From: Leucoraja ocellata
Lineage: Eukaryota
DNA: 64,000 nucleotides
Direction: 5' to 3'
Assembly (NCBI GenBank): GCA_036785375.1
Contig: JAWMAR010001091.1
Span: 310,001 to 374,000, forward strand
Of the stretch, positions 1-64,000 are shown in pieces (positions within the stretch are counted from its first letter, which is position 1; each line of letters opens with the position of its first letter). The position numbers and the translations under genes are program-made. Below the pieces are notes generated by a model. It saw nothing but the letters and a program-made list of their open reading frames with translations. It searched no databases and was not told the origin of the DNA.

Positions 1-199
1 CCCGACAAAGCATCCTCCCTTGACGCCCATTGATTTTAATTTTACTAGTGCGCCTTGTCGCCATATACTGTTAAATTCTGCCGTGTTGTCAAGGGGGTGT
101 GACTCTGACTTCATTACTGGAGATTAGCTCTTGAGACTAAGGCTGGGGTGAGATCTGGGGTCACGTTGTCCTGGTGAAACACAAACTGAGTGCCGTAAC

Positions 200-830
200 A
201 GATTTGCCGAGCACTTGCGCTTGATCTGCCAAAGCCTACTGGATCCCCCATCTTAACGTTCCCATGCCGACCATTTTGTGCAGGGCCTCTTACTGCCAGA
301 GTGTGGCCACATTCAAACTGGAGGAACAGCACCTCGTATCCCACTTGAGTAGCTTGCAACCCAATGGTATGAGCTGAATTCTCTAATTTTAGGTAACATC
401 TCACCCCATTCTTTCTTGTCTCTTCCCTTCTCCCTGACCCTGATGCACAACAATTCTCCATTGATCTCACTTCCCCCCCCCCGTTCAATCCCTCCTTCCA
501 CCAATATCCCTCCCTCCAGTTTACATTTCACTGCTGTAGACATAATCCCAAACTTTCAGACCTCTTCCCTCCTTCTCAACACCTTTGTTGTGTTCTTTAG
601 CCCACTTTTGTCAGCCGTATGTCTCCTTTTTATCTCTTGCTTTTGTCCACCCATCTGATAATCAAAACCTTATACCCAACGATCACTTGTCCCACCCCCC
701 AGCTCTTTTCCAACTCTCCCTCCCCACCACACTCAGCCTGAAGAAGGGTCCTGACCCGAACAATTGCCTGTGCTTGACCTCCAAAGATGCTGCCTGACCC
801 AGTGTATTACTCCAGCACTTTGTGTTCTAC
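200..830 (+). mobile_element. Penelope-like retroelement 3' fragment: degenerate GIY-YIG endonuclease C-terminus, pyrimidine-rich 3' UTR and pLTR with hammerhead-like motif
   Basis: Frameshifted translation RFAEHLRLI...ATFKLEEQHLVSHLSSLQPNGM..EFSNFR resembles the PLE endonuclease end. CTGAAGA-AGGGT-CCTG-ACCC-GAA at 738-760 is followed by the same tail as the many short copies. Confidence 0.75.
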
Positions 831-960
831 CGTAACGGATTAGATACTTTCCAGCTCCAGAATGCAAAACTGGCTGGAAGAGGTATTGGCACCACTTCTG
901 AACACAGAACATTTCAGTTACATCAACCCTTGTACATAACACGATGGAATTCGTCTTTGA

Positions 961-3120: not shown

Positions 3121-4264
3121 TCTAACCTAATAATTATAAAATCCATGTAACTGATTTAATTTTAATTTGCTGCATTTTTTGAATATCCTCTTCCAGCATT
3201 GGGAAATTGTAGTCGGTCAACTTCTCCGTTTTGTTTTTACCTTAAATGTTTATTAGTTTAAAATATGCCAAGTGTTGGCACATCAAACATATTTCATAGG
3301 AAGAAAACACTAAATAATAAGTGATTAAAGTTTACAGTAGCTGAGGAATTTTGGAGCCTCGGGCACCATGACCCCCCCGTGTGAGTCAGCCTAATTATTT
3401 TCCCCCTTATATACAACAAATGTTATTACTGACAAAAACAAAAGAATAGCACATTTAAAAATGGTTTAATCAATACAAAATAATACCTGACAATTGACTG
3501 CTTCTTGTTGCAATTTCTCTAAATGTTTTAAACTCTGAGTAAGTCTTTTTATCTTATTGTAAATTAGATGCCAGTGAAACAGCTGTAAAAATGCCTACTG
3601 TGGTTGAGTTTGAACTCTTGATGTGACAAACTCCATGTAAAGTTCCAATGTGGGTGTCAGACACACAACCTGCATCTTCCTTGTGACTGGTGCATTCAAA
3701 CGCATACAATTCTCAATGTTTGAAGTGATTTGGCAAATGGTAATGTGATACTATTCTATGTTTGAAATCATTTGAAGTTATTCCTAATGGAACACCCAGT
3801 GGGAGAGCATGCAAACTCCATAAAAACAGCACGCAGGCTCAGAGTCGAGGCAGCAAGCAGCTCCAGAACTGTGCCATCCGCAAACTTTCTGCCTTCATTT
3901 GCAGCTTTCTTTTTCTGAATCTGTGCTCAGTTTCTCTTCTGCCTGTCAAGTTAGATCAAACCTTCACCAACATGACGAACAAGCTTGCAATAGTATTGGT
4001 GCTAATCCCACTGAGAAGGCACCCCTCAACCTCCCCCCCCCCCCCTCCCCCCTTCATCTGACCCATTCAGATTCAATCTTCCCCAGAACTGAGCCCAGTG
4101 CCCCAAGAATTCGAACATTTAAAGGTAACTTCTCATTATATTAATTTCAGTATTTTGTTGATATATTCTATACACATAATTATGATTGGCGAAAATGCCT
4201 CTTATTTCAATGCTTTTTAATTAACGAACAGCTGTAACCTGGATTGAACATAGAACAGAACAGC

Positions 4265-4615
4265 GCAGATAGATAGAATGGACAGGGTTGAGGCACAGAG
4301 TATTTTTAGCCAGAGCAGGGGAATCAACCAACGAGCGGACATTGCTTTAAGGTGAAAGAGGAAAGATTTAATAGGAACCTGAGACAACTTTTTCGCACAG
4401 TGGGTACATGGCGGCTATATGGAATGAGCTGCCAGAGGGGGTAGTTGGGGCAGCTGCTATAACAACATTTAAAAGACATTTGGATTGGTATATGGATAGG
4501 AAATGTTTAAAGGGATGTGGGCCAAACATGGGCAGGTGAGACTAATGTAGCTGAGGTATCTTGGTTGGCATGTGCAAGTTGGGCCGAAGGGCCTGTTTCC
4601 ATGCTGTGTGACTCA
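4265..4615 (+). mobile_element. CR1-type LINE 3' fragment
   Basis: ggacattgctttaaggtgaaagagg...gggccgaagggcctgtttccatgctgtg. Similar fragments at about 14895-15000(+), 15040-15330(-), 18255-18560(+), 22735-22940(-), 28975-29225(-), 31625-31815(+), 56060-56380(-) and 56876-57100(+). Confidence 0.75.
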
Positions 4616-5824
4616 GTAACAAGCCCTTCCATCCACAATGTCAATGCCAAACGTGGTATCAAGATAAACTAATCTCATCTGCCTGTACCTTGGTAAGTTA
4701 TTTAAATATAATATTTTCATTCTTATGTGTTTTGAAACAAAATGTAACTGAAATTATATATAAAAATATAAACCTCCTTGATAAAGTAAATAGTGTAACC
4801 ACAAAGTGAATTATAATTTAAAGATGTATTTTTACATGAATAATATATTAGTTGCTTGGTTTAAAAAAAAAAATGCTATCCTGTGTAATTATTTTTCTTA
4901 CCTTCCGGGAGTACTACCAAAAATCACCTGTTCACTCTTCATGCCATTTGCTTATCAGAAACGTAGTGAAGCGCAACATCTGTGGCAGGCTCTTTGTTAG
5001 CTGAAATAAACTCTCTGCGAGATCACTATAACATTCAGGGTAAGAATAAAGCACTGTGTCCAGGTAGTTAGAATGCCTGTCATTAGCTTGTCTATTTGCT
5101 AGGCTTTTCATCTAAGTAAACTATTTAGATCCTTCTAATGGTAACCTGTCTGAATTCACCTGGGAGATAGGTACTTGTGTGACCATTTTGGCACAGAGCT
5201 TAAGACTGTTGCTTTGATGATGTATTTCAATGATGAACTGAGTCCCTTAACTTCAAATAACCGAACAAAGGTTGATTCAAACAGGAATATTATATAATGT
5301 CCTTAAATTATCAATATCTCTTTATATTCCTAATTAAAAAAAACTAAGCCAAGTGTAGAATTTGACATTTAATAATGTATTCTTACCAATGTAAATGGTT
5401 AGTATAGCCCTTTGATTTAAAACTGGATAAATTCCAAGGTCGGGTATCAAGCTTACTTTAAAGTAGACTGCACTTATTGGTATTCGTAGAGCTGTGCCAC
5501 GTTACTTGTTGTGTGGTGGAACTATAAAGGAATAAGATATCAAAGGAATAATACAAAAAACTATTCAATATTAAGTTTGATTTCGGTCATCATTTTGCAT
5601 TTTTAGTGGAAAGAATTACTAGCTATTAACAAAGAAAGTGGTTTATACCATATTAAAAATTAAGACATTTATTTTCATCTTCAGATGTGATCCTAATATT
5701 TCCATACCATCCCCCACTTAAAATCTTAGATAATTTTGACTTTATCAAAAATATGATAACACTCTGTGATAGTTCAGGGAAATAATTTTCAATTATAAAT
5801 TATCACAAAACTATTAACAGTTGA

Positions 5825-6210
5825 ATTGGTTTAGTAATGTCACGTGTACTGAGATGCAGTGAAAAGCTTTTGTTTGCACGCTGTCCAGTCAAATCTTACC
5901 ATTCATGAGTACAATCGAACTATACTGAAGTACAATCGGGTTGTACACAAATACTACAGAGAAATGCCAGAGTACAGAATATATATTTACAGCATTCTAG
6001 CATTGCACTTACAGAGAAAATGGCTAACGTCTGCAATGAGGTAGGTTGGAAGATTGGGAGTACACCCTAGCCTATGAAAGGGCCATACAGTGGTCGGATA
6101 ACAGAGGCGAAGAAGCTATTCCTGCATCTGGTGGTGCATGCATTAAAGCTTTTATACCTTCTAGTAACAGTAGAGTGGGAAAAGAGGGAATGGCCAAGGT
6201 GATAAAGGTG
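5825..6210 (-). mobile_element. Rex1/Babar-like LINE 3' fragment
   Basis: The reverse strand gives HLGHSLFFPL...RRYKSFNACTTRCRNSFF (frameshifted), like the Rex1 HPGHSLF..LPSGRRYRS...TTRLRNSFFP ending. Related 3' UTRs at about 24725-24925(-), 62478-62670(+) and 12955-13060(-). Confidence 0.65.
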
Positions 6211-6826
6211 TACGTAATGCTATAGCCGCACGGTACCCGTGAAGTTCTAATATGCTTTCATAATCTGTTTATCATTAACTACTGTCTTCACTACTTTGAC
6301 AATTAGGATTTGGCACATTACATGAAGATCAAATTCATCTAAGCTGGCAGATGAAGTGCTAAATCATTGCTTCCGCATTGAAATGTTTGGAAAATCATTG
6401 ACCTTAAGTTGCAGGATTTTGATCCATAATTCAGTTTGATTATGTGGTTTGATTTGGCAATCAATTTAGAATAATGTTCTTACCCTGGTCCAAACACTCA
6501 AAGTTGAACAATGCCATGAAAAAGCAGTGTTCCTTTGCTTTTGATTATTTGGCTGCAGAAACAAATCACACTTTAGGAGACAAAGTTTTAACACCTGACA
6601 CTGCAGAAAGATTTTAAGATATCTTGGAGATGTCGCGAAAAAGCACTACTTTTCATTGCATATCTTGTGAAAAATTGTGCATCTGTTATTCTCCACTTCT
6701 CTTCCCATTCCACCTTGCACCTGCCCCTAGAGTCAATTTCATCTGCAATCTCTTCATTCTGCGAATAACAAGAAAACGAGAAGGGGCCTGCGTTGAAGGA
6801 GCTCAGCCAGGGGTCTTGTAGAGGGC

Positions 6827-7031
6827 AAAACACAAAGTGCTGGAGAAACTCAGCGGGCCAGGCAGCATCTTGAGAGGGAATGGATAGAGACCCTTCAGGT
6901 TGGGACCTTCTTCAGTCTGACCTGAAACGTTGTCTATCTATTCCCACCAAACCTGCTGCCTGACCCATTGAGTTCCTCCAGCACTTAGTGTTTTAAGGAT
7001 GATTCCAACAACCGCAGTCTCTTGTGTCTCC
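6827..7031. mobile_element. Fold-back Penelope pLTR element
   Basis: Inverted arms (cacaaagtgctggagaaactcagcggg... / ...tgagttcctccagcacttagtg) joined at cttcagtctg. Flanking direct repeat cttgtagagg at 6815-6824 and 7034-7043. Confidence 0.75.
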
Positions 7032-8004
7032 GGCTTGTAGAGGACATTGGGCCTGGCACAGTACAGCCACAATACAGCAAGTTCTAATCTTGCATGGTGA
7101 CCGGACTCCACCAGCTCAGTCCTATATTGGAATAGAACCTAGGCCTAGCCTTTTGTGCTTCTGGATTTTGAATTGAACCCTTGACCTCTTGACTTGGAGG
7201 CGTGTGAGCTAGCAACAGTACTGCAGCTGATACCTGACAAGGTGACCTGATAATCTGCTGTATCCAGGCTCCCCACTCTCTGACTTACAACTAAAATACT
7301 TTTCAGTCTGTCAGCAGCCTTGTGTTTTTCCTGGAGAATGCCACTTGGATTTGCATTCAATGGATCATATCTTTAAATATCACGGAAGAAGCCATTTTCT
7401 TGCATAATGTCCGTTATAATAACTTGCTAATCTATTTTGCTTTTGAAATTATGTTGGGGAGAAAAAAAAGATTTGAAAAAGTTACAGCGCGGAGATAATT
7501 CTGCGGGAAAGAGTTATTTTGGTGTTTTTACTTTTGTAGAAACAGGTGGACCCAATAGGATAATTTATTTGGCTTGAAACTGACTTTAGATTCCAATGGC
7601 TTATGCTTGGAGCTGAAATTATCATTGCTGTCTGCAAGCGATTGTGGAGAAGTGATTCATGCTCCCGACATGTTCTAGAAACATACCGGGAGATGATTGT
7701 TTTGCTGTTGTGCCTGAAGGAGAATTCCTACAAAGTCATTAATTTATATCTAGGTCTGATGCTTCACTGCTTGTCATTTTTTAAACATTTGTGTTGGATT
7801 CTAGATGGACCAATAAAATGTTTTTGATTTAAGCAGTGCTGTTTTTTTGTAGACCAAATGTGCACGATTAATAAACCAGCCTGTCACATGGTGGGAAAAT
7901 TAAATAATGATGTTTCGTTTTCTGGAGGTGCCGCAGCGCCGTTCCAATGCAATACAAACACAAAACAAACGGAGAAATTGTGTAACAATTTGGAGCAGCA
8001 TCGA

Positions 8005-8290
8005 GGTGCAGCACAGCACCAGAGACCCGGGTTTGATCCTGTGTATGGGTGCTGTCTGTGCGGAGTTTGTACATCCTCCCTGTTACTACCTGGATTTTCT
8101 CCGGGTGCTCCGGTTTCCTCCCACATTCCAAAGACGTGCAAGTTTGTAGGTTAATTATCTTCTGTAAATTGCCCCCTGGTGTATAGGATGTGCAAGTGGG
8201 ATAATATAGAACATGGGTATGGGTGATTGATGGTCAGTGTGGGCTCAGTGGGCCAAAGTGCTTGTTTCCACACTGAATCTCTAAAACTAA
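8005..8290 (+). mobile_element. tRNA-derived SINE (V-SINE/HE1-like)
   Basis: cagcaccagagacccgggtttgatcc...ccggtttcctcccacattccaaagacg...tctctaaaactaa. Confidence 0.8.
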
Positions 8291-9769
8291 TATACAGAGT
8301 TCCTCTCTGTAGAGCGTCAATAATTCTGAGGTAATAATTTTGCGGCCCATTTTACTCTTAGCTTTAAGCATTCTTTAAACTTTTATCATTATTGTGTTAT
8401 GATAAAAGCTATAATCATCTAATGGATAATCTTGTATCCAATGACAGTAACTTTTAATGTCTGGTTCCATTACTCCATCGCTGAGTTTGGTTACATTTTC
8501 CTACAGTCGAAAGCCAATATGAACTCATCATCTTTGGTATCTGGAATCTTGTGGCTCTATTTTCAGCTCCACATGTGATCCATTATAGTTACAAAGAAGA
8601 TATTAATTATGATTTGCTGCAACTGTCCAAAGCCGAACACGGCTCCACAATGTTTATTAGTAACGAGGATAGACCAAAGGATTATTTTTATTTGGTTGCT
8701 ATGTGAATGGTCCTACCATGGCAACATATATTGTCTATTACCAGTTGGCCTAAGAGGGCATCTATTGGGCTTTTGAACTGTACCACAAGATGACTTGCTA
8801 TTTCACTTCAGAGTATCATGGTTTAACCATCGATGGTGTAAAACACAGCCATGTGCAGCTAGGTGAGATCAACATGGTAAATCAGTATCCTTGAAGGAAA
8901 TTGCAAAATGGATTGGCCGTTGTCATTGATGTTTTATTTATTATCTTGGTGCCATTCATAAATAGCCAGATTTATTGAAATTGATTTGCAAGTTGTCATG
9001 ATGGACTTTGGTATTAGTGCCTCTGGATTACTAATCCAATTTGTCAATCTGAACCCGCAGTCACACAATCACATTGCATTTCATCTTAAACATTAGCTTT
9101 CATCTTCACACATTTATTTTTGTATTATGTTGGCAACATTCTGATAGTTTGGGGTAATTCAGCAATCCTTTTGCCCACTCATCATTGTTCTGAATTTGCA
9201 CTTTAAATGTGGGCATTCCTGGTCAATAGTTTGGATTGGATGTTGTTTATCATGAATCTGACAATCTTGCGGTTCAGACAAATACCAGGTTCTATCATGC
9301 TCATGTATGCCAAATAATAGATTAGATTACCAATAATAAAAGTTGCCTTTGGAATGACAATGGCATTGCTAGTTTGTCTGGATTATTTAACGTGTATGCC
9401 CCCCAGTGGTCCTCCCATGTGAAATAAAACATTTTAAAACGCTGACCAAGTGCAGATGTTTTTTTTCATCTGTTATTTCTGGTCTCGACAACAAGAAATG
9501 GTGGCATACTTGGCTAGTGTTATAAACACCATAAATGCATCTCATGTCATAGTTCTAGAAGCGACAGTATGGCTTTGATTTGCATCAAATGAATCCTAAT
9601 TTTAAATATGTAGATTAAAGCCTATTTCGGATCATGCTTTGAAGATAGACATGTACAGGTTTCTTTTCAGCGTACATCCAGAAGGCATGTACAGGTACCA
9701 GCCTGTGGTGACAGGAATCTACAGAATGACCTGCTATGTTTATGTTAGATCTGAAACTCTTAATTTTAC

Positions 9770-10871: not shown

Positions 10872-11587
10872 ACAGAGTGAATTTATTTTTGAATGACCAA
10901 TTTAAAAAGTCATTCAGTAACTTGCTCTGCTTGCGTGACCTTGTCATTTCATGAGGGACAGGAGCAGTGATGGTACTGGCATGTCACCAAAGAGCGGTCA
11001 GTCTCCTCTCCACTATTTACGTTGAATAATTTAACTTCTTGATTGTTTCAAACAACATGGAACGTTCAAAAATCAAAGAATGCAGAAAGTCGGGTGCTTT
11101 AGTGAGGATGGATATCTTGGTGGTATCCTGCACCTTTACCTAAGCTACCGACATTTCCGTAGCAAGAGGACTATTTGTGAATGGTGCAGGAAATAAGGAA
11201 TGCAAAAGCAATTTCAAGTACCATTGTATATTTATTTATTCCCTTCAAGGATGACAATATACCATTTTGATCCCTTCTGGCTACACATGATTGTATTTTG
11301 CATTAGGTGTTTAAATAATGATACTCGGGGTGGAATAGCCAGTCATTTTGTTGTACAGTTTACAAGTCGTATGGATATCCTCTGAGGCCAACTGGTAATA
11401 GACGATAAATGTTGCCACATTAGGACCATCCAGATATCCAACGCTTTGGTCCATCCTTGTACAAGTAAGCAACTTAAAGTCTCGTTAGCCTTTGGACAGT
11501 TGGAGTATATCAAATTTTTGTTGTTGTCAATATAATGGTTGAATATCATGATGATTTATCAAATCTATACCCATGTCCCTGAGGAAT

Positions 11588-11792
11588 GTCTGAAGAAGGG
11601 TCCCAACTTGAAACGTCGGCTGTTCATGACCTCCAGAGATGCTGCCTGACCTGAGTCTGAAGAAGGGTCTCGACCCGAAACATCACCCATTCCTTCTCTC
11701 CAGAGATGCTGCCTGTCCCGCTGAGTTACTCCAGCTTTTTGTGTCTATGCTGCCTGGCCTGCCGAGTTACTCCAGCACTGTTTGTTTTACCC
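11588..11792 (+). mobile_element. Two nested, same-orientation Penelope pLTR elements
   Basis: CTGAAGA cores at 11590 and 11657. The inner copy is flanked by atgctgcctg(a/g)cctg. Confidence 0.75.
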
Positions 11793-15344: not shown

Positions 15345-15542
15345 AAGAACGGCCTCAGTCCCCCTGCTGCCTCCTCCCATCCCCCAGCCTTCAGGCTCCT
15401 CCTCCTTTTTCCTTTCTTGTCCCCGCCCACCCCCGCCCCCGATCAGTCTGAAGAAGGGTTTCGGCCCGAAACGTTGCCTATTTCCTTCGCTCCATAGATG
15501 CTGCTGCACCCGCTGAGTTTCTCCAGCTTTTTTGTGTACCTT
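15345..15542 (+). mobile_element. Young Penelope pLTR element (UUCG subfamily) inserted in a CR1 fragment
   Basis: CTGAAGA-A-GGGT-TTCG-GCCC-GAAA-CGTT at 15448-15475. Nearly identical to the copies at 39451, 52013 and 62930. Confidence 0.8.
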
Positions 15543-15740: not shown

Positions 15741-16350
15741 CAATGGCGCAGTGGTAGAGCTGCTGCCTCACAGTGCCAGAGACCCAAGTTCAATCCTGAC
15801 TACGGGTGCTGTCCTATAGTTTAGTTTGGAGATACAATAGTTTAGTTTGGAGATACAGCGCGGAAACAGGCCCTTTCAGCCCACTGGGTCCGCTCTGACC
15901 AGCAATCCCCGCACATTAACACTAGGGACGATTTTTACATTCACCGAGCCAATTAACCTACATACCTGTACGTCTTTATGTGGGAGGAAACCGAAGATCT
16001 CGGAGAAAGCCCACGCAGGTCACGGGGAAAACGTACAAACTCCGTACAGACAGCACCTGTAGTCAGGATCGAACCTGGGTCTCCGGCGCTGCATTAGCTG
16101 TAAGGCAGTAACTCTACCGCTACGCCACCGTATCGGTCCGGAGTTTGTACCCTCTCCCCTGTAATCATGTGAGTTTTCTCTGGGTGCTCTGGTTTCCTCC
16201 CACATTCCAAAGGCGTGCAGGTTTGTAGGTTAATTGACTTCTGTAAATCGCCTCTAGTGTGTAGGATGTGAAAGTGGGATTATACAGAACTAGTGGTCGA
16301 TGTTCGATGTGGGCACGAACGGGCTGTTTCATGCTGTATCTCTAAACTAA
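15741..16350. mobile_element. Plus-strand SINE interrupted by an antisense copy of the same SINE family (about 15818-16130)
   Basis: The head ggcgcagtggtagagctgctgcc...ggtgctgtc breaks at about 15815 and resumes at about 16135 (cggagtttgtacc). Confidence 0.8.
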
Positions 16351-17683
16351 AGCAAACCATCCATTGTTTAGCAACTTTAATTTACACAGACAGAGTGGAA
16401 ATTCCAGGAACTTCCGTAAGTAGCAAGTGTAACCTCTCCAGTAAAATGCAATATGGACGATAGTTACAGAGGATATAAAGCAACTGGGAATACAGCAAAT
16501 GGCAGAACTGAGGGAGGAAAAAAGAGATCTCAGAGAGTCATACAGCTGGAACAGTTTACAGTGAAAGACAAATGCCCTGGTAGTTTCCAGCCTTCTCTTA
16601 AAATTACCTGAACAGGCATTGTTGAATATTATGTCTGAAAGACAACCGTAAACTAAGTGGCATGCTTCCAATGGAAAAACCTGGAACACCTCAGCGGTTA
16701 GGTAACCTCTAAAAGAGAATTTCAAAATGAGTGGAGCAGATCTTGCTGGTCTGGTCTTCCCAGCTTGGATCACCACGCATGGTCACTCCATGCCCCTATT
16801 TCAGTCTACATGGCTGGCCCACCTTGATGGCCCAAAGCAAGACTCCAGTGGTACAAACTACAGGAGCAGGACTCTGTCATACACTCATACACACTCCGTC
16901 CCTGAATCTGCCCTGAAATATTTAGTCCTGGAAAGGCTTTAAATCATTTCAGAATCATTTAGAAACATAGAAATTAGGTGTAGGAGTAGGCCATTTCTCC
17001 AGTTCTGTTTGCCCTTTTTTTAGAAACAAGGAACTGCAGTTGCTGCTTTGTACCAACAACAGACACAAAGTGCCCGAGTAACTCAACGGGTCAGGTTTGG
17101 GTCAAAATATCACCCATTCTTTTTCTCCAGAAATGCTGCCTGACCAGCTGAGTTACTCCAGCATTTCATGCCTATCACAGCGAAATAGCTGATAATGCAA
17201 ATGAGATGTGTTCTTGCGGTCATTAAATATGTTCCACCTTCTACAGCCAGGTCTTTGGGGCAACTCCCTCACAATTAACCTCTTTGACAACCTCCTATTG
17301 GTACGTCATGTTCAGATCCAGAGGGGTTCATCAGCGTACAGGGCCACTCCTCTGGCCTCCCCGCCCCTTTAACACAGATTTTAAGGTGTAAGTGAGGTGG
17401 CCACTGCTTTGTTTAGCTCGAGGTGGACACTTTGCAATGCCCCCCCAACAGCAATCACCAACACCTTAAAGAGCTCGGTGATAACTGTGCCAGTTACATG
17501 CAGCTGGGATTAGAAATTCTGCAATTATCAGCAATGGCAGAAATGGTGAAATCATTCCAGAAAGGCGTGAACGTGAGATTTTGGACACAAGATTCATGTA
17601 CAGGTACCAATTTATCAGTGGAACAAACTGACCTTGGTTTTCTATCACCTCTGACACTCATGACATTTATATCACCATTTCAG

Positions 17684-20987: not shown

Positions 20988-21206
20988 TGGAGATGCAAGG
21001 AACTGCGGATGCTGGAATCTAGAGTAAAACACACAGTAGGGTAGTATCTCAGCAGGTCAGGCAGCATCTCTGGAGGATGTGAATGGGTGCAGTTTTGGAT
21101 CGAGACCTTTCTTCAGACTAAAGAAGGGTCTTGACCGAATCTCCGCCCAGCCATGTCTTGCAGAGATGCTGCCTGACTCGCTGAGTTACTCCAGCACTTT
21201 GTTTTG
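20988..21206. mobile_element. Fold-back Penelope pLTR element inside the U12 intron
   Basis: Inverted arms joined at cttcagactaaagaagggtc. Confidence 0.7.
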
Positions 21207-33939: not shown

Positions 33940-34502
33940 AGACACAAGAAACTGCAGATGATGGAATCTTGAGCAAAAAACAAACTGCTGGAAGAACTCA
34001 AGCGGGTCAGGCAGCATCTGTGGAGGGAATGGACAGCTGGTGTTTGGGGTCCGTATCCTTCTTCAGACTAATTAATTTGTGGGGGAGAAAACTGGAAAAG
34101 GGAGGAGGGAAAGGCAAATACAATATATCGATTGGCAGAAGAATGGAGATAATGACAAAGACCAAAAGGAAATGAGGTAAGGTATGAGGTAAGGAAAGAG
34201 GAGGAGGAGTGAAATGTAAAGCCAAAGTGTGGGATATGGGTGGAACTGAACAGGATGGAGGGGAAAGAGGAGGATAACAAGAAAATATGGAATTCGGGGA
34301 AGGGAGATGAGGGCAGAGTAGAAAAATGAGCTTGGTAACTTTGGTAGATACAAAATGCTGGAGTAACTCAGCGGGACAGGCAGCATCTCTGGAGAAGGAA
34401 TGGGTGACGTTTTGGGTCCAGACCCTTCCTCAGACTGAGTTACTCCAACATTTTGTATCTACCTTCAATTTAAACCAGCATCTGCAGTTCTTACCGACAC
34501 AT
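33940..34502. mobile_element. Minus-strand Penelope pLTR/3' UTR plus a fold-back copy (34348-34502)
   Basis: The fold-back copy is bounded by the 16-bp direct repeat ttggtaactttggtag (34332-34347 and 34503-34518). Confidence 0.75.
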
Positions 34503-36994: not shown

Positions 36995-37350
36995 AGCAAA
37001 ACACAAAGTGATGGTGGAACTGGGTCAGGCAGCATCAGTGGAGGGAATGGACTGGCAACGTTTCGGATCATGGCCCCTCTTCAGTCTGATGTTCGCCAAT
37101 TACCTCCATAGCCAATGCCTGACCCGCCAAGTTCCACCAGCAGATAGACACAGGAGTAACTCAGCGGGACAGGCAGCATCCCTGGAGAGAAGGAATGGAT
37201 GATGTATCGGGTTGAGAGAATGGTCTAGGCACAAAAGTCACCCATTCCTTCTGTCCCGCTGAGTTACTCCAGCATTTTGGGTCTATCTTCGGTTTAAATC
37301 AGCATCTGCAATTCCTTCCTACACAAGTTCCTCCAGCCCATTTCTTTTTT
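36995..37350. mobile_element. Fold-back pLTR element nested inside another fold-back pLTR element
   Basis: The inner element is bounded by caagttcc(a/t)ccagc. Both elements have inverted arms. Confidence 0.7.
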
Positions 37351-37694: not shown

Positions 37695-37960
37695 TGATCC
37701 ACCCTCCTCCTCCACCAATCTTCTCTCCCCCCCGCTGACTCATCTGCCAGTCTATCCTTTATTACCTGGACCCACCCATCACTTGCCAACTCCTGCCTCA
37801 TCCCTTCCCTTAGCCTCTTTCTAGCAGCTATTGCTCCTCTACTCCGTCAGTCTGAAGAAGGGGTCTTGACCCGAAACGTCTGTCCATTTCCCTCCACAGA
37901 TTCAGCTTGACATGCCGAGTCCCTCCAGTAGTTTTGAACATCTGCAGACTCTTGCGTCTG
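37695..37960 (+). mobile_element. Penelope 3' UTR plus pLTR
   Basis: Pyrimidine-rich UTR, then CTGAAGA-AG-GGGT-CTTG-ACCC-GAAA-CGTC at 37852-37880. Confidence 0.7.
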
Positions 37961-39029: not shown

Positions 39030-39433
39030 CATGAATGAATAAAACTATGAAATACAACTGCAAATACAGACAATAATTGAAATTCTGCTTAAGGACTGAT
39101 TCATTACTTCAGTGAAAGCATACAGTTTATCTTCTTGGTAACCCAGAATGAGAGGACGACTCTTTAAAAAAAAAAAGACAACTGCCTGACCTATTGTGCT
39201 GGAAGAATTTTAAAACAGAGCTAGATAAATTCTTGACCACTATGGGTGTCAAGGATTATGTGGAGAAGGCAGGAGAATGGGGTTAAGAGGGAGAGATAGA
39301 TCAGCTACGATTGAATGGCGGTGTATACTTGATGGACCAAATGGCCTAATTCTGCTCCTATCACTTATGACAATGAATGCTCTTCTACAGGAGCGTCTCA
39401 GTCCTACTTCCCACAGAATGCAACAGATGTTAA

Positions 39434-39537
39434 GTGAGTCTGAAGTGAGTCTGAAGAAGGGTTTCGGCCCGAAACGTTGCCTATTTCCTTCGCTCCATAG
39501 ATGCTGCTGCACCCGCTGAGTTTCTCCAGCTTTTCTG
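39434..39537 (+). mobile_element. Young solo pLTR element (UUCG subfamily)
   Basis: 15-bp direct repeat tgcaacagatgttaa (39419-39433 and 39538-39552). Intact core at 39451. Confidence 0.8.
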
Positions 39538-40212
39538 TGCAACAGATGTTAACTTGCCTTCACCCTGAGCAAAGAACCCTTGACATTAACACCAAGACCA
39601 ACATTCTTCCAGCTCGGTATGTCAGCCAGTTGCCTTTTTTTTTTTTTTAATGTATTTTTTTTTTTTTTTTTTAAAGAGTCATCCTACCATTCTGGTTATG
39701 AAGAAGATGTACTTCATTTTGTTCCCACTTACTATAAGAGATATCAGGAAAATTTGTGCAAAACACACAATTCTCAGTAATTTACACCATTACGAGCAGA
39801 TTTACAATCAATTAATTGTATGGCCCATCCACCCACCACTGCCTGTGACTGTTTTTCCTATAAATGATTATCACTTATATCAGCAATATAATTTTACTTA
39901 TTACATATTGGTATTAGTCATTACCTACATATTATTAAATCAATTTTCAAAAATAGAAGGCAATTTTCTAGAAACAACTACTGACTACTTTTGATCAGGA
40001 CTTAGAAGTTTAGGAAAATACCTTTAAGTGACGTTTCATAGCATCAACAAGGTTCCTTTCAAATACATCATGATTAAAATGGTAGGACTACTGCATCAGC
40101 AATCAATATGATAGGGCATTATACAAAGAAAAATAGATTACCAAGCATACAGGCCAACATTTTTTTTTTGATGAACTAATGCCAAAGAACAATATGAATG
40201 AATCATTTTATC

Positions 40213-43684: not shown

Positions 43685-43870
43685 GGAGAAACAAGGAACA
43701 GCAGATGCTGGAGTCCTGATTAAAAACACAAAGTGCTGGAGGATCTCAGCAGGTCAGGAAAACACCTGTGGAGGGAATGGACAGGTGACATTTCAGGTCC
43801 CGGCCATTCATCTGAAGCAGAATCGTTGTCATTCTATTCCTCTCTACAGATACAGCCTGACCCACTGACA
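43685..43870. mobile_element. Fold-back Penelope pLTR element next to the GALK2 exon 8 acceptor
   Basis: gaaacaaggaacagcagatgctgg...gacatttcagg, then the inverted arm ...ctacagatacagcctgacccactga. Confidence 0.7.
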
Positions 43871-45400: not shown

Positions 45401-48388
45401 TGTGCCAAAACTAGCTCGTTCTCTATACAGGTATAAGCAACACCATAATTTAAAAAATCTTCACCTTGTTTAAAAGCTCCTTTCTAATCTCACTCTGCTT
45501 AACCATGTAACCTTCTCTAGCCTAGAAGCCACAGATATTGCTTTCTCCTATTTCTAGCCTGTTTTCCATCCATTTCTCATCTTTCCATCATTGACAGCCA
45601 CGTTTCCAATTATTTCAATCAGAAGTTGTGAAACTCGGCCACAAATCTCTCAGACCCTTTTTAGTAAGTTTGTGAAGCACCTCTTTATTTAACCACTTAG
45701 CCATCTCTCCAAGGTGCTTGGCATTGTTTTGTTTGATAACTGTTCCTTCAAAGCAATTTACTGTGCTACATAAATGAAACCCATTGGTGCCTTTGAGTCG
45801 AGAATTAGAAAGAGACTAATTATTCTACAAATTCACTGGGAACGATCCCTGTATCTGGCTCACATGGATTATATCGACTGGGCTTTTCCCAATTTTTCTC
45901 CTTTGATATTAAGATTACTGTCAGCATGCTCTTTACAACCTTCCTAATTTATTTCCCCCCACAGTTCGTGTATGGCACCTCATACAAGAGAATTATGACA
46001 CTGCACAAATCACACTGCTAGCATTTTGAATACTTACCAGAACAATATAATACAGCAACCCAAACTATGCAGAAAGGATCAAGATTTCAGTTCCAGGCGA
46101 TCCATCCAAACACATTTCTCTAGAGGCAAGTGTCTAATATTTTCTATCATCTTGATTCATGGGTTTCAAACTGACATCGAGTGGGTGTCGATGTTCTCTC
46201 TGTGCCTCTTGTGCTACAACCTCACATTCCCACTCTCTGTCTAATTAATGATAGCCCATTGGTGTTGTTAACTAATGCACGATAAATTAATTGTGCCAAC
46301 TTTCGGGTTGTCTGGCAGCTCTCTGCATGTTGTTTTGCCAACGATCATGTACACTTGAAAGTTAATGGGATGCCACAACATTGTTGAAAGGTTAGGATGA
46401 GGCTTAACATTCCCGGGAATGCAGCCATTGGGGAAAAAGTGCACGCACTCCCTTCCTAATATATGCATTCCATTAGAAAATTGATGAAATCATCAGATTT
46501 GCCAAATAAGAAATCAGTGAACAGTATGTGGCAAAGCACTGCTCATCTGAGAACTCTGTCATCATAAGCAAACCAAGAGGAACCAGGCGCACAGACTGTC
46601 AGAGCTGCAAAAACTCTCATTAGCACAGGCAAAGCAAACTCTTTCCTGAACAAAATGGCAAATCATTCATAATATTGTGTATGGAGCCAAGCATTAATAA
46701 TTATCTGGGTTAGATGTGTCCAGTTTTTTGTGGCCAGGACATTGTTGGGCGGATGTTAATATTGTAGCTGTGCTGAGCAGTTTAGCTGAGCATCTTCCTT
46801 GTTCTGGAGCACCACATTTATGCTGTTGGGGGGGGGGAGAGGACATATACTACGTCCCATACACCCAGTTGTTTCTTGATATTATTTGGAGTTAAACAGA
46901 TTGACTGAAGGAGGATAGTAACCACAAAAAGCTAGAGTAACTCAGCAGGTCAGACAGCATCTCTGGAGAAAAGGAATAGGTGATGTTTCGGGTTGAACCC
47001 TCCAAATCAAAATGTCTTCCAGATATGCTACCTGACCCAGCACTGTGTGTTCTGCGCAAGATTCCAGTATCTGCAGTTCCTTGTGTCTACATTTGACTGA
47101 GAAATGTATTGATGAGCACCTAAGGAGGAGGTTAAGAATACCATTCGCTCCGTCCATCTTTCAATGGTGAGCACTGAAAGCAAAATCATCAATTGTGCTC
47201 TAATCTAATAAGCAAACAAAAGGCTGTAAAGCACCTAGAGCTAGAAAAGAACAGGTCTCACAGCAAACTTCATCTTACCACTGTGAAACTCACTTTTAAG
47301 GGTCCTTTCTGAATTGTCCAGAACTACTAGAAAATCTCAGGGTAGAGAGATTCTGTCATCATTCACATGCCTTCAATTTGTGGATTTCAACAGCAACACT
47401 TCTTGTCAAATGGAATGCAGGTAAAGGTGAAATTGTACATATTGACAAGAAAGGAAACAATAGTATATTCTCTAAATTAGGTGAACTTGCAGAGTCCCAA
47501 GAAGGCAACCACATCTTCCAACAATTTGATGATGATTGTAGTAAACTGACTGGGTCATAATTATTGGATTTTTGTGAGGACAACACACACACCTTAGGTT
47601 CCCTAATTCCCAATAGAACCTGCATTCTACTTTTTATGGCTCATGTACTGTGAAAAGTTGACCACGTTACCCATTACAGAACCCACAAAGCCAGAGTGGA
47701 TGTATGTCATCCTTGATCCCTAAGAATTGATGAAGATGAAGTTATATAAAGCACTGGTGAGGGACTGGTGAACATTAAGATGACGATAAAGATGAAGACA
47801 TCTTCGAAGACCCCAGATCCCTCTCCACCCAGGCCTCTGCAAATTCTCATAATTTAGATCATATGTTTTTTTTCCCCTTTCCTATTACAATGGACAATTT
47901 CACACTTTCTCATCTTATATTCTGTTTGTCAAACCTTTACCGATTCATTTAAGTGCTTGAGGAACTCCGCGGATCAGGCAGCATCTGTGTAGGGAATGGA
48001 CAGGCGAAGTTTGGGGTTAGGCCCCTTCTTTGGTCTGATGGAGTAGGGGGCAGAAAGCTGGAAAAGAGAGATGGGGAAGGACCCAGGAATGGGAGACGAG
48101 TGTACAAAGCTTTGTCTTTTAACTAGACGTATATACTTGTAACTAATTGTGTACATTTCAGTTTGACTTCTTTCACATAAAGGTGTTTGCCTCAGTTTTT
48201 ACTCCATGGCAAATTCTGAGCCATTAGCTAAACTAGTAGTTCACAAAAACTAATGTAGTCAATGGGTCAAATTACCGACACCATATACGAGCATGTAGTG
48301 CTGTTCTTTGGAATACCATGAGAAATTATTATTATATAACATACAACTGTTGTTTGTCAGGAAAAGCAATAAAATTGAGCAGTGATAC

Positions 48389-48541: not shown

Positions 48542-51401
48542 CTATGAAAGATAAAATGGTCATTTGTAGATATGTAACCGGTAACACCATTCGACATGTA
48601 CGTTTAGACCAACCTGTACGAAGCTTTGCGTTACATAACAACAATGTCGCACGCACCTGCAATATTTGTAGATCATGGCTCAGAGTATTTCATGGTAATA
48701 ATCCCTTTCCCTTAAAGGTTAAAGGCAACGAGAACAAAATGAGGAAATAATTTCACGTTGACTAGCTCTCTGTTAGCCAATCAAAAATTGGACAGGAATA
48801 AGGCCAGCAAGTCGGGTTTCATTAAAACAAAATAAATGAAGTAGTGATTTCCGAGATGTTTACGAATATGAAGAGATGTCAAGAAGGCCACTTGATAATT
48901 TGCATAACATGAAAGCATTGAAACATGATTATGCATAAATAATTTGGGACAGAGAAGAACAAAATTACAGAGAGAAAATTATGAAATCGCAAAAGTCAGT
49001 GATTGAAGCAGAGACCATGTCTGCATTTCAGTTCGATAAGAGGCTGGGGCAACGGGAAATAATGCGATTTGAAAACAAGTCTGGCTGGTTATTGCTTGGG
49101 TGGAGGAAGAACATTCATATGGATTGGCTGGGCTGTAATGGCACATGTCCATACCGCAATTACTTCCCTTTGATACAAATGGCCTCAGTACACATGGACG
49201 GCTGTGGCAGTTCCACTCTGGTTTTCTTTCAATTACCTTCTGCTTAAACTGTAAAGAGAGACCATGATTATGCCCTACGTGGTCAAATGGCTCCCAAGTC
49301 ACTCGTACATTAAGAATAAACAGTGCAGTTAGGCACGAGCACTGCATCATGTTATCATGAGTCAGCATTTTCAGTCGAAGAACAGAGAATGAAATAAAAA
49401 GATGTTTGTGTGACAAATTTTTGGCAGAACTGGAAAAATTTTGTTTTTTATTTTCCACATATCCTTGGTCTTCTGAATCTGAATAAGAACATGGGCAAAG
49501 AACAGATGTACTTCGAGGCTCCTGGCAGCCATGGGTGTTCCAGGCAATTATAAATTTTCAGCTGACCCAACGTTCCACTCCATGTGATTTAAATTATATG
49601 TTCGAAGATAACGCACTGCATGGATCTCAATTAAAAACATGAAAGAAATGTACCATGATTGCAAGGTTTGTAGATGGGATGCTTTCAGTTGGCAGAATGT
49701 CCTACTGTTGTACAACTTGCCAAATCTTTTACAATAGGGTAATTGTGACTCCAGAAATATTTCTATTGAAGATCCCAATTGTGTACCAACCAAGGGATGT
49801 GTATATTACTCAGTCACTGCTGGTACTGCAATTGCATTAAATAATTAATTTGTACATTTGTACAAAAACTATTGCACATTCCAGTACAAAGATCACCCAT
49901 AATAATCTGCACTACCAGAGGGAAAATAAAATAAACAAATTAAACTCCAGTTTATTACAACCTCCTGGGACCTTTGACTAGTTGTTAATAATTCAATTTT
50001 AAAAGCAAATGCTGCTCAGCAAGCGGTTTAGAGATTATCATTTGTCAGTCCGTGTGAAATTCATGTACTGTACATGGTCTAATGACATTTCATCATGGAT
50101 TCTATTTCACTCATGGTAACTTGCAAGGATAAACACTTCATAAAATAGTATCCGTCCTTCAAATTTACTAAGCAATCACAGCATGTTGTCACCGACAGGC
50201 CACCTTCAAAGATGAGCATGATAACACTAAAATCTTCATGCTTCATGTAGTGCACGGTGACTTCACTTTCATGTGCCTGCTACATGGAAAGACCATGGAA
50301 TCAACGGCAAATTTCCCAATGATATGAACACACACTTATAAAGCTTGTGAACATCGTTCGAATTTGATGGTTCCTTCCTTAAACCTACTCATCATTTCTC
50401 TGGACAATCATTTATTACCAGTTCAGCTGCAAAGCTTTCTTCACCGCAGCTACCAAACAATTACCAACTTCATGAACTTATCCCTTCTATGAATATTTCA
50501 CAAAGACCAATGCTAGAAATCTTCTGAAAATACATGTTAGTACTTGCTGAAGCAGAATAACAGTGCATATCCTCAAGCACTTTGTGTCCTTTTTTGCAAA
50601 CCAGTATGTGCAGTTCCTTGTTCCTACATCCAAGAGTGCTTCTGGATACTTTTTCTGCTATATTTCTAAGAGTAACTGATCGAGAACATGCAGATAATGT
50701 CTCGATCTTTTCTCAATATGGTGAAAAAAATGTTCATACACCAATCCCAAGATACTTCCATGCTTTGTGCGAAACCTCTCTCATGTACTTAATGATATTA
50801 GGGTATTTTAGGAGAAACTGATTACCTGACATGCAACACATATCTGAAAAGGATGGTCTGAGCATCTTCTGACTTTTCATTTCTATTATTGGGTATGTTT
50901 AGAAGGAATTGCAGATGCTGGTTTATACCGAAGATAGACAGAAAATGCTGGAGTAACTCAGCGGGTCTGGCAACATCTTTGCAAAAAAGGAATAGGTGAC
51001 ACTTCGAGTCACCTATTCCTTTTCCCCAGAGATGTTGCCTGACCTGCTGAGTTACTCCAGCACTATGTGTCTATCCATTAACGGGTATGATAGACTCAGC
51101 AATGATAATGCAATAGTAGGTAACTAGATTTTCATGTTAGAGATGACCAATGTTGGGCAAATTTGCAAAATAAATGTTATTTTCTACTTGTAAGCCCATG
51201 CTTGAATTTTATTTTGTCTTGTATGCTTGAGAATCAAGTGTTTCATTTGCTGAGGATTTGCAAATGAAATTAAACTTTATGCAATCATAAGCAAACAACT
51301 TCAATTCAAACCTAATAAGGGAAGGAAGCATTATAACCAGAGGATTGTAATCACTTCATGCAAGTACTGATGTATCTCAGAAGTTTAAATAAAATGATTA
51401 C

Positions 51402-52012: not shown

Positions 52013-52225
52013 AGGTACACAAAAAAGCTGGAGAAACTCAGCGGGTGCAGCAGCATCTATGGAGCGAAGGAAATAGGCAACGTTTCGGGCCGAAACCCTT
52101 CTTCAACGTTTCGGCCTGAAACGTTGCCTATTTCCTTCGCTCCATAGATGCTGCTGCACCCGCTGAGTTTCTCCAGCTTTTTTGTGTACCTTCGATTCTC
52201 CAGCACCTGCAGTTCCTTCTTAAAC
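52013..52225. mobile_element. Very young fold-back pLTR element (84-bp arms, 1 mismatch)
   Basis: Arms at 52013-52096 and 52108-52191, 34-nt unpaired tail at 52192-52225, and 14-bp direct repeat aaggaataatcagt (51999-52012 and 52226-52239). Confidence 0.85.
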
Positions 52226-52397
52226 AAGGAATAATCAGTGATGTGATTGGGGATTGACCAAAGTTGAAAACCACAATATGCAAAGAAGTGGAATGGCTGC
52301 AATAAAACAAACTGAAGGCAAAACTAAATTGTAAACTTTAAGAAGTTGCTGGAAATGTACAATTTGAATTTGCTTCTACCATAATTTTCCCTGGTAA

Positions 52398-61900: not shown

Positions 61901-62924
61901 AGTCTGCAATTTCTCCCATTAAAAATCTCTAATCCATGCGAACGGTTGCCAAATAAAAGGGAAACACTTACTCCGTGGATGGGAATAATTATAATGGAAC
62001 TAAACCAGTGCAGGTTTCAGAACAATTCCTCAGATGTGGTTCAAGAATGTCATCAAGAGACATCCAGAACCAAGTCATGGTGAACATTAAAAACACTATT
62101 TGCTCGAGCACAAGGAAGAGTGAAGTCCCAACCAGCTGTTTCTCTCCCTAGAATACAATGACTGATCATTTGCATGGTTAAGGAACTGACTGCTGGCAAT
62201 ATCGGTACAGTTGCGCTTGTTCGAGCTTTCCCGTCCCGTATATTAATTGCTAACTCTTTTCAGGCATTTTCCCCACTGGGATCAAACATTTATTTCCACC
62301 CAAAGCTGCAAAATTAAGATGCCAGAACAAAGTTAAAGGAAACTTTAAATCAACCAAATTACTAGTTTACCATTGTTTTCAGAACTTTGTAAGTATCCAA
62401 AAATTGCTAATGTGGCATCCAAATGTAATCCTGTTCCACATATGGTGAGAGCACACACACCGCAAAGGAAGTCTTTCCTTGATCGGACTTTGCTGGCTTT
62501 ACCTTGCACTGAACGTTATTCCCTTGTACTGTACTATAAATGTACCATAATACACTGTACATACACTGTGAATGGCTCGATTGTAATCATGTATTGTCTT
62601 ACTACCACTGGATAGCATGCAACAAAAGCTTTTCCCTGTACCTCGGTACATGTGACTATGTAAACTAAACTAAGCCATAAACAGGAATTACTTTCACTAT
62701 TCACTGGGATGCTAAACACACATCGCCAGAGATCAACTATGTTTTGTGGAAAGACTGTTGGTCTCTTTTCAAATTTATTTAATCATGTTTAAGTTAGACT
62801 CAATGACTGAAATTGGAGAAAGAAAAATATACATAGGTGCTGCCATTCATTAGTTAGTGCAGCATACAATTCTTTCTCTGTTTCATACCACCCAAATAGT
62901 CTTGCAATATCTTCCCTTCAAGTG

Positions 62925-63126
62925 TTCAAGATGGAACTGCAGATGCTGGAAAATCGAAGGTACACAAAAAAGCTGGAGAAACTCAGCGGGTGCAGCAGCA
63001 TCTATGGAGCGAAGGAAATAGGCAACATTTCAGGCCGAAACCCTTCTTCAGAAGAAGGGTTTCAGCCCGAAACGTTGCCTATTTCCTGCGCTCCATAGAT
63101 GCTGCTGCACCTGCTGAGTTTCTTCA
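62925..63126. mobile_element. Young fold-back pLTR element (UUCG subfamily)
   Basis: Inverted arms joined at cccttcttcagaagaaggg, with the tail on the left arm. Confidence 0.8.
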
Positions 63127-64000
63127 TTAAAAGTGTCTAATTAATGAACATCTTGATTTATCACTCACCTTCCCATTTCTACCTTACTTTGAAGTGAATT
63201 ATCCTTATCAAGTGCTGTGCTTTAACACTCATTATTTAAAAGCGGCCATTTTGTCTTCCAATATATTTATCTCATGCTCAATAGATAAATATTGTTCTGC
63301 CCGTAATAGACCAATCGAAATGTGGATTTGGAAAGAAAGCCAATGACTCCTTCCCCATCTTGCAGGAATATTTCTGCAACAATGGGAAGGCAGGTACCCA
63401 TGTTGAGGTACTTCCTCAAAGGAATCCCAGGAATACATTTGCATTATAAACGCTACATGTTCGTAAAGATTTTTTATAGCGAGTCACTTTTAAACAGTAT
63501 TTCATTTGTATGTCTATGAATTCAATGAACACTTCTAGTTTAAGACGTGGATATATCAGCTGAAATATTTCATCCACTAAACAACAATTTGAAACAAATC
63601 AAATTAGTATTATCTTGGCATCTATCTGGTAAATTACCCATGTATGCATTGTGCACAAAAACAGATCATGTATAATGCAGTCATTTGCTACCCTATCAAT
63701 CTCTTAATCATCAGTTAGCTACTGGAGGTATTATAAATAGCAACAGCGAGTGACACTTTTTCCAATTAGGTCCCCTGATGTTCAGTTTGGATCTGTCAGA
63801 AACACATTTCTAAATAAATCACAGCTTTTGTCCAAACGTGGATAGAAGAAATGCAGGCCAAGGATGACAAGAGAGATGTTCCCCTCAACATCAATACAGC
63901 ATTCAGCCAATTATGTAGAAATACATCACAGCAAAACACACATAATGTGATGAAAGGAAAATTCTCTGGAGACTCTGTTATTCATACTAAAAAGAAAGCA

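Follow-up and report, generated by a model that had tools for sequence, protein, structure and literature searches.

Minimal type I hammerhead ribozymes in the pseudo-LTRs (pLTRs) of Penelope-like elements (PLEs) are already in print, along with dispersed single motifs, opposite-strand pairs, tails and solo pLTRs, in the compared parts of the sources used here (PMC4209133, PMC11167929, bioRxiv 10.64898/2026.07.22.740005, PMC8557442, PMC3846280, PMC2377424, PMC6765202). As given in the compared part of the metazoan survey, the consensus runs from helix I through CUGANGAH, a helix II opening with a G-C pair, GAAAN and a palindrome to NUH, and the alignment includes GUU triplets and examples with a 2-bp helix I (PMC4209133). 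The compared sections of other work place PLE start sites within pLTRs (PMC8557442, PMC2377424) and describe a CX2-5CxxC linker between reverse transcriptase (RT) and endonuclease (EN) as common to Neptune and Nematis (PMC8557442). For PAc, the Poseidon element of Anolis carolinensis, the compared description reports that in vitro both strands are nicked and extended, that two internal RT starts define the tail, that the ribozyme is protein-assisted, and that RNA left unprocessed serves as the main substrate for insertion (Frangieh et al. 2024, PMC11167929). Animal non-LTR retrozymes have been reported from one chondrichthyan genome, according to the compared part of a recent preprint (bioRxiv 10.64898/2026.07.22.740005). 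In the literature outside subscription journals, Dfam and Repbase, we found no paper on the present family or on 5' ends at helix I, nor, in the literature outside subscription journals, any on a Penelope hammerhead in a skate or shark or on Neptune in elasmobranchs.

Here, we propose that the motif at 15445-15480 of the window (the whole 64,000-nt stretch of Leucoraja ocellata DNA analysed) is very probably the pLTR hammerhead of an autonomous PLE, and that the many short elements sharing it are truncated or inverted insertions of that element, likely copied from uncut RNA. Motif and host class having both been published, the identification itself is ordinary; the unexpected detail is a pile-up of the 5' ends of short copies at helix I. 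The letters and positions of the motif agree with those described in a first-pass annotation of the window, as do all five stem variants that it quoted (at 15448, 39451, 11657, 37852 and 738), the copy at 738 having a broken GAAA box and that at 11657 a CpG-decayed stem III. Table 1 collects the features of the window.

Table 1. Positions of the hammerhead motif at 15445-15480, its parts and its related copies within the window
Feature	Position	Strand	Basis or remark
Minimal type I hammerhead motif	15446..15477	+	sequence; fits published consensus, scored intact
Helix I of the hammerhead motif	15446-47 with 15476-77	+	
Hammerhead core	15448-15454	+	unpaired extra A at 15455
Helix II	15456-59/15464-67	+	UUCG loop between arms
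GAAA box	15468-71	+	followed by CGU
Palindromic helix III	15471-74	+	H17 = U at 15475
Predicted cut site	between 15475 and 15476	+	
Kept stretch 3' of the ribozyme, reaching the nearer of two 3' end sites (where reverse transcription likely starts)	15476..15542	+	3' ends of young copies
5'-truncated 3' end (3' UTR and pLTR), very probably of an autonomous PLE	15353..15542	+	blastn
Solo short insertion, first base 3 nt 5' of core, 15-bp target-site duplication	39419..39552	+	
Three older-subfamily fragments, same-strand cluster	11587..11792	+	profile; two with motif, 67 bp apart
Decayed older-subfamily copy, broken GAAA box	734..832	+	
Older-subfamily copy, complete motif	37848..37943	+	
Young head-to-head inverted pair, joint at ribozyme, longer tail on one arm	52016..52226	both	
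Young head-to-head inverted pair, joint at ribozyme	62921..63128	both	
Older head-to-head inverted pair	6823..6999	both	
Further head-to-head pairs	~17060-17176, 21019-21206, 34341-34465, 37150-37289		
Further head-to-head pairs	~43721-43868, 46918-47055, 50931-51075, 59675-59845		

A search profile built from 13 window copies matched the window 47 times at E<=1 and 40 times at E<1e-3. The annotation had reported many copies in 64 kb, and indeed 26 of the 40 matches at E<1e-3 span the motif from core to triplet; five shuffled windows together gave 3 matches, with a best E of 0.027. The complete motif is retained in 3 of 21 near-full window copies, and the solo insertion at 39419..39552 also bears a short repeat of its own 5' end. 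Two neighbouring features were seen in passing. On the minus strand at 174-374, tblastn (E 7.7e-5) detects the decayed remains of a related PLE's GIY-YIG C-terminus, which precede the plus-strand copy at 734. Adjoining the 15445-15480 copy, at 15745-16330, are several short interspersed repeats in both orientations with a tRNA-like head, which we take to resemble the HE1-type SINE of sharks and rays; ARAGORN reported no tRNA over the window.

The family is as highly amplified as the annotation supposed. Three exact subfamily patterns of 36-38 nt match the genome 27,177 times (a single 36-mer), 4,800 times and 7,643 times, with 0 matches to the reversed controls. In 400 kb of genome taken from arbitrarily chosen places, the profile found 193 matches, 126 of them spanning the motif, which extrapolates to ~1 million motif-bearing fragments in 3.44 Gb. 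The complete motif is kept in 19 of 123 unselected near-full copies; extrapolated from these 19 in 464 kb, ~140,000 complete motifs would be present genome-wide, compared with the 4,000-9,000 reported for coelacanth and Xenopus in the compared part of the metazoan survey (PMC4209133). Most genomic copies are likely decayed passengers.

What element do these copies come from? Upstream of many of the 20 best genomic matches to the 15445-15480 copy lies a frame that ends in a GIY-YIG-type C-terminus and, beyond it, an RT. An RT query returned 30,803 candidates, of which 150 were scored, and 20 of those with long open frames were taken for locus study. The motif lies ~110 nt 3' of the stop position in all 20, the longest frame stopping earlier or reading through in two. 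Several of the 20 loci have an inverted second copy upstream and one, L053, a direct one (a partial tandem); the window sequence at 15353-15542 is 93.9-97.1% identical by blastn to the pLTRs of L053. At another locus, L226 (C1:8664490-8672495), two or more whole 3,985-bp units follow one another head to tail and contain one intact frame of 1,234 aa, whose ATG lies 164 nt behind one core and whose stop lies 116 nt before the next; it is the sole setting seen in which two ribozymes share one coding transcript. The frame carries DKG at aa 640, YIDD at 881, CX4CX2C at 1101 and YIGET at 1151. Pfam matches it to RVT_1 (E 1.5e-6) and GIY-YIG (E 0.013), both below the curated cut-offs, and the Atlas neighbours of its last 720 aa (score 0.98) carry RVT_1, GIY-YIG and HTH_animal; a PDB sequence search with the frame gave 0 matches at E<=1. 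A long Pro-rich low-complexity N-terminal region occupies aa ~230-560 of the L226 frame; it contains short peptides repeated in tandem, in numbers that differ from copy to copy.

By its motifs, not by a tree, the element is likely a Neptune-type PLE. As in the compared description of Neptune EN+ PLEs (Craig et al. 2021, PMC8557442), a single frame encodes RT followed by a C-terminal GIY-YIG, with a CX2-5CxxC linker and a DKG motif, and there are partial tandems, inverted 5' copies and an optional tail of 30-40 bp. The traits of EN+ PLEs present here include pLTRs in partial tandems, inverted 5' copies, the optional tail and a target-site duplication (TSD). Set against that description, the N-terminal part is long here (~560 aa) and Pro-rich; the linker is compatible with either Neptune or Nematis (PMC8557442). 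Among unselected copies outside the young family, 11 of 104 lie directly behind GIY-YIG remnants, 9 of the 11 having the older stem. An older subfamily (L050:100-125; unselected copies R76, R80, R88 and R104) has a different recurring sequence upstream of its motif. Because that older subfamily too lies behind GIY-YIG remnants, at least two autonomous lineages must have supplied the repeats. The annotation had seen a non-autonomous family; instead, the short copies are best read as 5'-truncated or inverted insertions of autonomous RT and GIY-YIG elements, the young family being linked to intact or long frames and the older stem also found behind GIY-YIG remnants.

The annotation's assignment of the motif to the PLE-type minimal type I hammerheads with a palindromic stem III stands, since the motif fits the compared consensus (PMC4209133): CUGANGA with its unpaired nucleotide, G10.1-C11.1, GAAAN and NUH are all present. 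In common with the metazoan motifs in the compared part of that work, it has CUGANGAH, G10.1-C11.1, GAAA, palindromic positions 15.2-16.2, NUH and a type I arrangement, and occurs in pLTRs, mostly as single motifs of truncated elements and as opposite-strand pairs (PMC4209133). Helix II at 4 bp and helix I at 2 bp are at the short end of the published range, as compared, and cartilaginous fish are absent from the compared part of the published alignment (PMC4209133). The extra A and the GUU triplet, which the annotation had treated as anomalies, belong to the published pattern of CUGANGAH and NUH. Two of its caveats therefore fall away, because the compared consensus has CUGANGAH and NUH and lists GUU triplets and a 2-bp helix I.

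Pairing was followed in 271 near-full copies, 123 of them unselected and 148 from loci fetched for other reasons. The helix III palindrome, which is compatible with dimers, has its A-U pair in 244 of 265 copies and its C-G pair in 179 of 266, and most departures are CpG decay. Helix I and II pairs are formed in 82-90% of copies, with one-sided changes only. A longer helix I was considered and rejected, the third pair being formed in just 8% and the fourth in 30% of copies, so that helix I ends at 2 bp. Six to seven subfamily consensuses, built on columns outside the motif, have the core in common, CpG-type changes excepted; their differences inside the motif concern loop II, the choice of C or U at H17, and U-A to U·G changes, one in helix II and one in helix I. 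Of the "structure-preserving substitutions" noted in the annotation, the tolerated U-A to U·G changes lend weak support, while no change among the subfamily consensuses is compensatory. Two of its proposed checks were negative: for covariation among 22 window copies, the score was reached by 413 of 500 shuffles, and Rfam models had 0 matches in the window at the gathering score. The tail blocks are as invariant as the core among the subfamily consensuses, and hence conservation does not single out catalysis.

In predicted folding, the active hammerhead fold is not the minimum. The helix II pair probability in 32-mers is 0.99 for the older family and 0.14 for the young one, in which a competing hairpin is predicted to depress it even at this length; in 97-mers that include the tail it falls to 0.07 (older) and 0.001 (young), since predicted pairing there joins the core to the pyrimidine tract downstream. 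This tract, at 15476-15497, closes in YAG 3' of the predicted cut in all subfamily consensuses and resembles a splice acceptor, besides being the partner in the predicted inhibitory hairpin. We consider it likely that the ribozyme is weak and relies on either a partner RNA or the element's protein.

Might the motif be catalytically dead in this lineage, and kept solely as a protein-binding or promoter sequence? A helix I of 2 bp with a third pair in 8% of copies, the competing hairpin predicted for the young family (helix II at 0.14 even in the 32-mer) and the lack of covariation would all fit. We nevertheless consider this doubtful, as the changes within the motif that define subfamilies are limited to loop II, H17 (C to U) and pairs that tolerate wobble, PLE motifs with a 2-bp helix I exist in the compared alignment (PMC4209133), and the PAc ribozyme, as described in the compared part of that study, cleaves only with protein (PMC11167929).

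The ends of short copies were placed relative to core C3 as position 0, the predicted cut then lying before +28. Among 41 young copies from unselected DNA, located by their tails, 16 have 5' ends in the interval -7..+1, all of them at -6..+1; 13 have them in +2..+24, the actual positions being +4..+22 (mostly arms of inverted pairs), and 10 far upstream (78-236 nt). No copy begins between -77 and -7. The predicted cut seldom coincides with an end: 2 of the 41 fall in +25..+32, at +28/+30, and 4 of all 177 young copies lie in that interval, a larger set that was chosen by a pattern from +7 and under-samples such ends. In 145 copies from loci chosen by the +7 pattern, the modal 5' end is -2 (25 copies), the helix I base G-2. 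Across the genome, G-2 is preceded by a base other than A in 4,425 exact copies, and 2,468 have A-3 without C-4, about the chance expectation from A's in the flank; the preceding bases are C36/G32/T32 in the first 100 of the 4,425 and A46/G27/T27 in the first 100 of the 2,468. The hint of a cap-derived extra G in 6 of 12 copies was not borne out by these counts; among inserted junction bases, 8 of 21 are G. A shift of the 5' end between subfamilies (-5/-6 as against -2) was seen in 4 of 14 versus 4 of 28 solo copies, both small samples.

The 3' ends of 177 distinct young copies fall at +88..99 in 96, at +120..135 in 57 and elsewhere in 24. Target duplications of 7-18 bp flank 42 of 63 solo copies, as against 5 of 300 mismatched controls, and 92 of 233 unselected matches have a head-to-head partner no more than 60 nt away. 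Most short copies begin at -7..+1 and bear either such a duplication or an inverted partner. The gap between duplication and element is empty or holds a few bases, repeated stretches of the element's own 5' end, or short pieces of tail in inverted orientation. At five loci (L140, L145, L163, L205 and L214) the inverted 5' arm consists of just 20-35 nt of tail sequence, making them miniature head-to-head structures; three of the five lie inside a target duplication. A fixed spliced exon joined to the motif was sought and seen neither in 38 TSD-resolved copies nor among the 15 listed of 151 RNA joints. In sequencing runs of related organisms, loose ends occur at the same -2/-3 boundary, with counts of 544 and 791 reads for X24 and 112 contigs for X15, and their RNA reads have no site where many molecules start or end, the reads being unstranded and 88% of those in X24 continuing into unrelated sequence.

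How would such copies form? In the mechanism that we favour, the element's endonuclease would nick the target and RT would start inside the RNA at one of two sites, ~95 or 130 nt behind the core. It would then copy through the uncut ribozyme and either continue into the coding frame or end where helix I has its first base pair, the most likely reason being that a transcript initiated in the pLTR starts at this point. Head-to-head pairs would follow from priming on both strands of the target. Uncut RNA is the likely template because young 5' ends pile up at -7..+1 and not at the predicted cut, and a transcript start at helix I would also explain why that helix has 2 bp. Against such a start, the counts of preceding bases carry no cap signature, and G-2 is not a usual initiator base.

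The nearest described behaviour is that of PAc. As in the compared part of its description, the two internal 3' end sites are separated by ~35 nt, the ribozyme is uncut and read through in inserts, and head-to-head structures would fit extension of both strands (PMC11167929). Here, in contrast, the ribozyme and both end sites precede the ATG, whereas in PAc they overlap the frame, and the pile-up of 5' ends at helix I does not figure in the compared PAc description (PMC11167929). More tentatively, the element RNA may begin at the hammerhead's first base pair, making RT's first product the counterpart of a retrovirus-like "strong-stop" cDNA. An RT start just 95-130 nt downstream of the RNA 5' end would give a short first product, which, inserted singly or twice head-to-head, would yield roughly a million SINE-like fragments; long copies would arise only when copying continued into a preceding unit.

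A block or a cut is a possible, if less than probable, source of the same pile-up, whether through a lariat adenosine at -3, splicing factors sitting on the pyrimidine tract and AG immediately upstream, or resolution of the cDNA by the element's own endonuclease. Because there is no cap-G signal, a branch point, splicing factors and endonuclease resolution stay live rivals to a transcript start. The modal 5' end lies exactly one base 3' of A-3, the 5' ends have no extra-G signal, pyrimidine tracts with AG stand just 5' of the core and 49 nt behind it, and in the compared part of the metazoan survey an intron of the D. virilis Penelope ends at helix I (PMC4209133). On the other hand, no GT-AG joint occurs among the 15 listed of 151 RNA-read joints, no constant exon intervenes between TSD and element, and the ends spread over ~8 nt, which is closer to dispersed initiation.

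That the ribozyme instead cuts the transposition RNA, by dimer cleavage followed by circularisation, so that genomic ends record the cut, was proposed by Cervera and de la Pena in the compared part of their work (PMC4209133), and the subfamily consensuses do keep the core, NUH triplet and palindrome, CpG-type changes apart. We regard it as improbable here: few 5' ends, 2 among the 41 unselected copies and 4 among all 177 (the larger set under-sampling them), lie at +25..+32, copies pass through the site unchanged, and PAc ribozyme mutants insert normally according to the compared part of that study (PMC11167929), although a circular template could hide the cut.

Animal non-LTR retrozymes, as compared, likewise have a type I hammerhead and a PLE pLTR origin, but theirs are tandems of at least two ribozyme units, whereas the copies here are dispersed monomers or inverted pairs (bioRxiv 10.64898/2026.07.22.740005). 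Tandem non-coding units with a complete ribozyme in each, by which retrozymes are recognised, were not found, the only tandem arrays seen being of whole coding units. A separate non-autonomous SINE- or retrozyme-like family borrowing PLE enzymes, or in weaker form short RNAs from solo pLTRs being re-copied, is very unlikely. In its favour, long copies are far fewer than short ones (110 of 123 unselected near-full copies have no GIY-YIG remnant within 350 nt upstream), short copies have sharp ends and TSDs, and PLE pLTRs are given as the source of animal retrozymes in the compared part of a 2026 preprint (bioRxiv 10.64898/2026.07.22.740005). Against it, the short copies of the young family share 94-100% identity with the pLTR of coding copies, young and older stems both occur behind GIY-YIG sequence, no short-unit tandem array was seen bar one three-fragment cluster, and 38 TSD-resolved copies have no constant extra 5' sequence.

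Thus, reading the short copies as pLTR stubs of coding PLEs corrects an annotation trap, in which these ~1 million apparent "SINE" fragments (an extrapolated count) would pass for a family of their own. The 5'-end pile-up is the only part that a specialist might follow up. The young family, whose near-identical copies number in the tens of thousands and which has an intact frame and sharp 5' and 3' ends, is a convenient system in which to ask if the transposition template is ever cut by the ribozyme and what sets the 5' boundary of the pLTR. If the strong-stop reading is true, the genome would document, in high counts, both where PLE RNAs have their 5' ends and the failure of the ribozyme to cleave.
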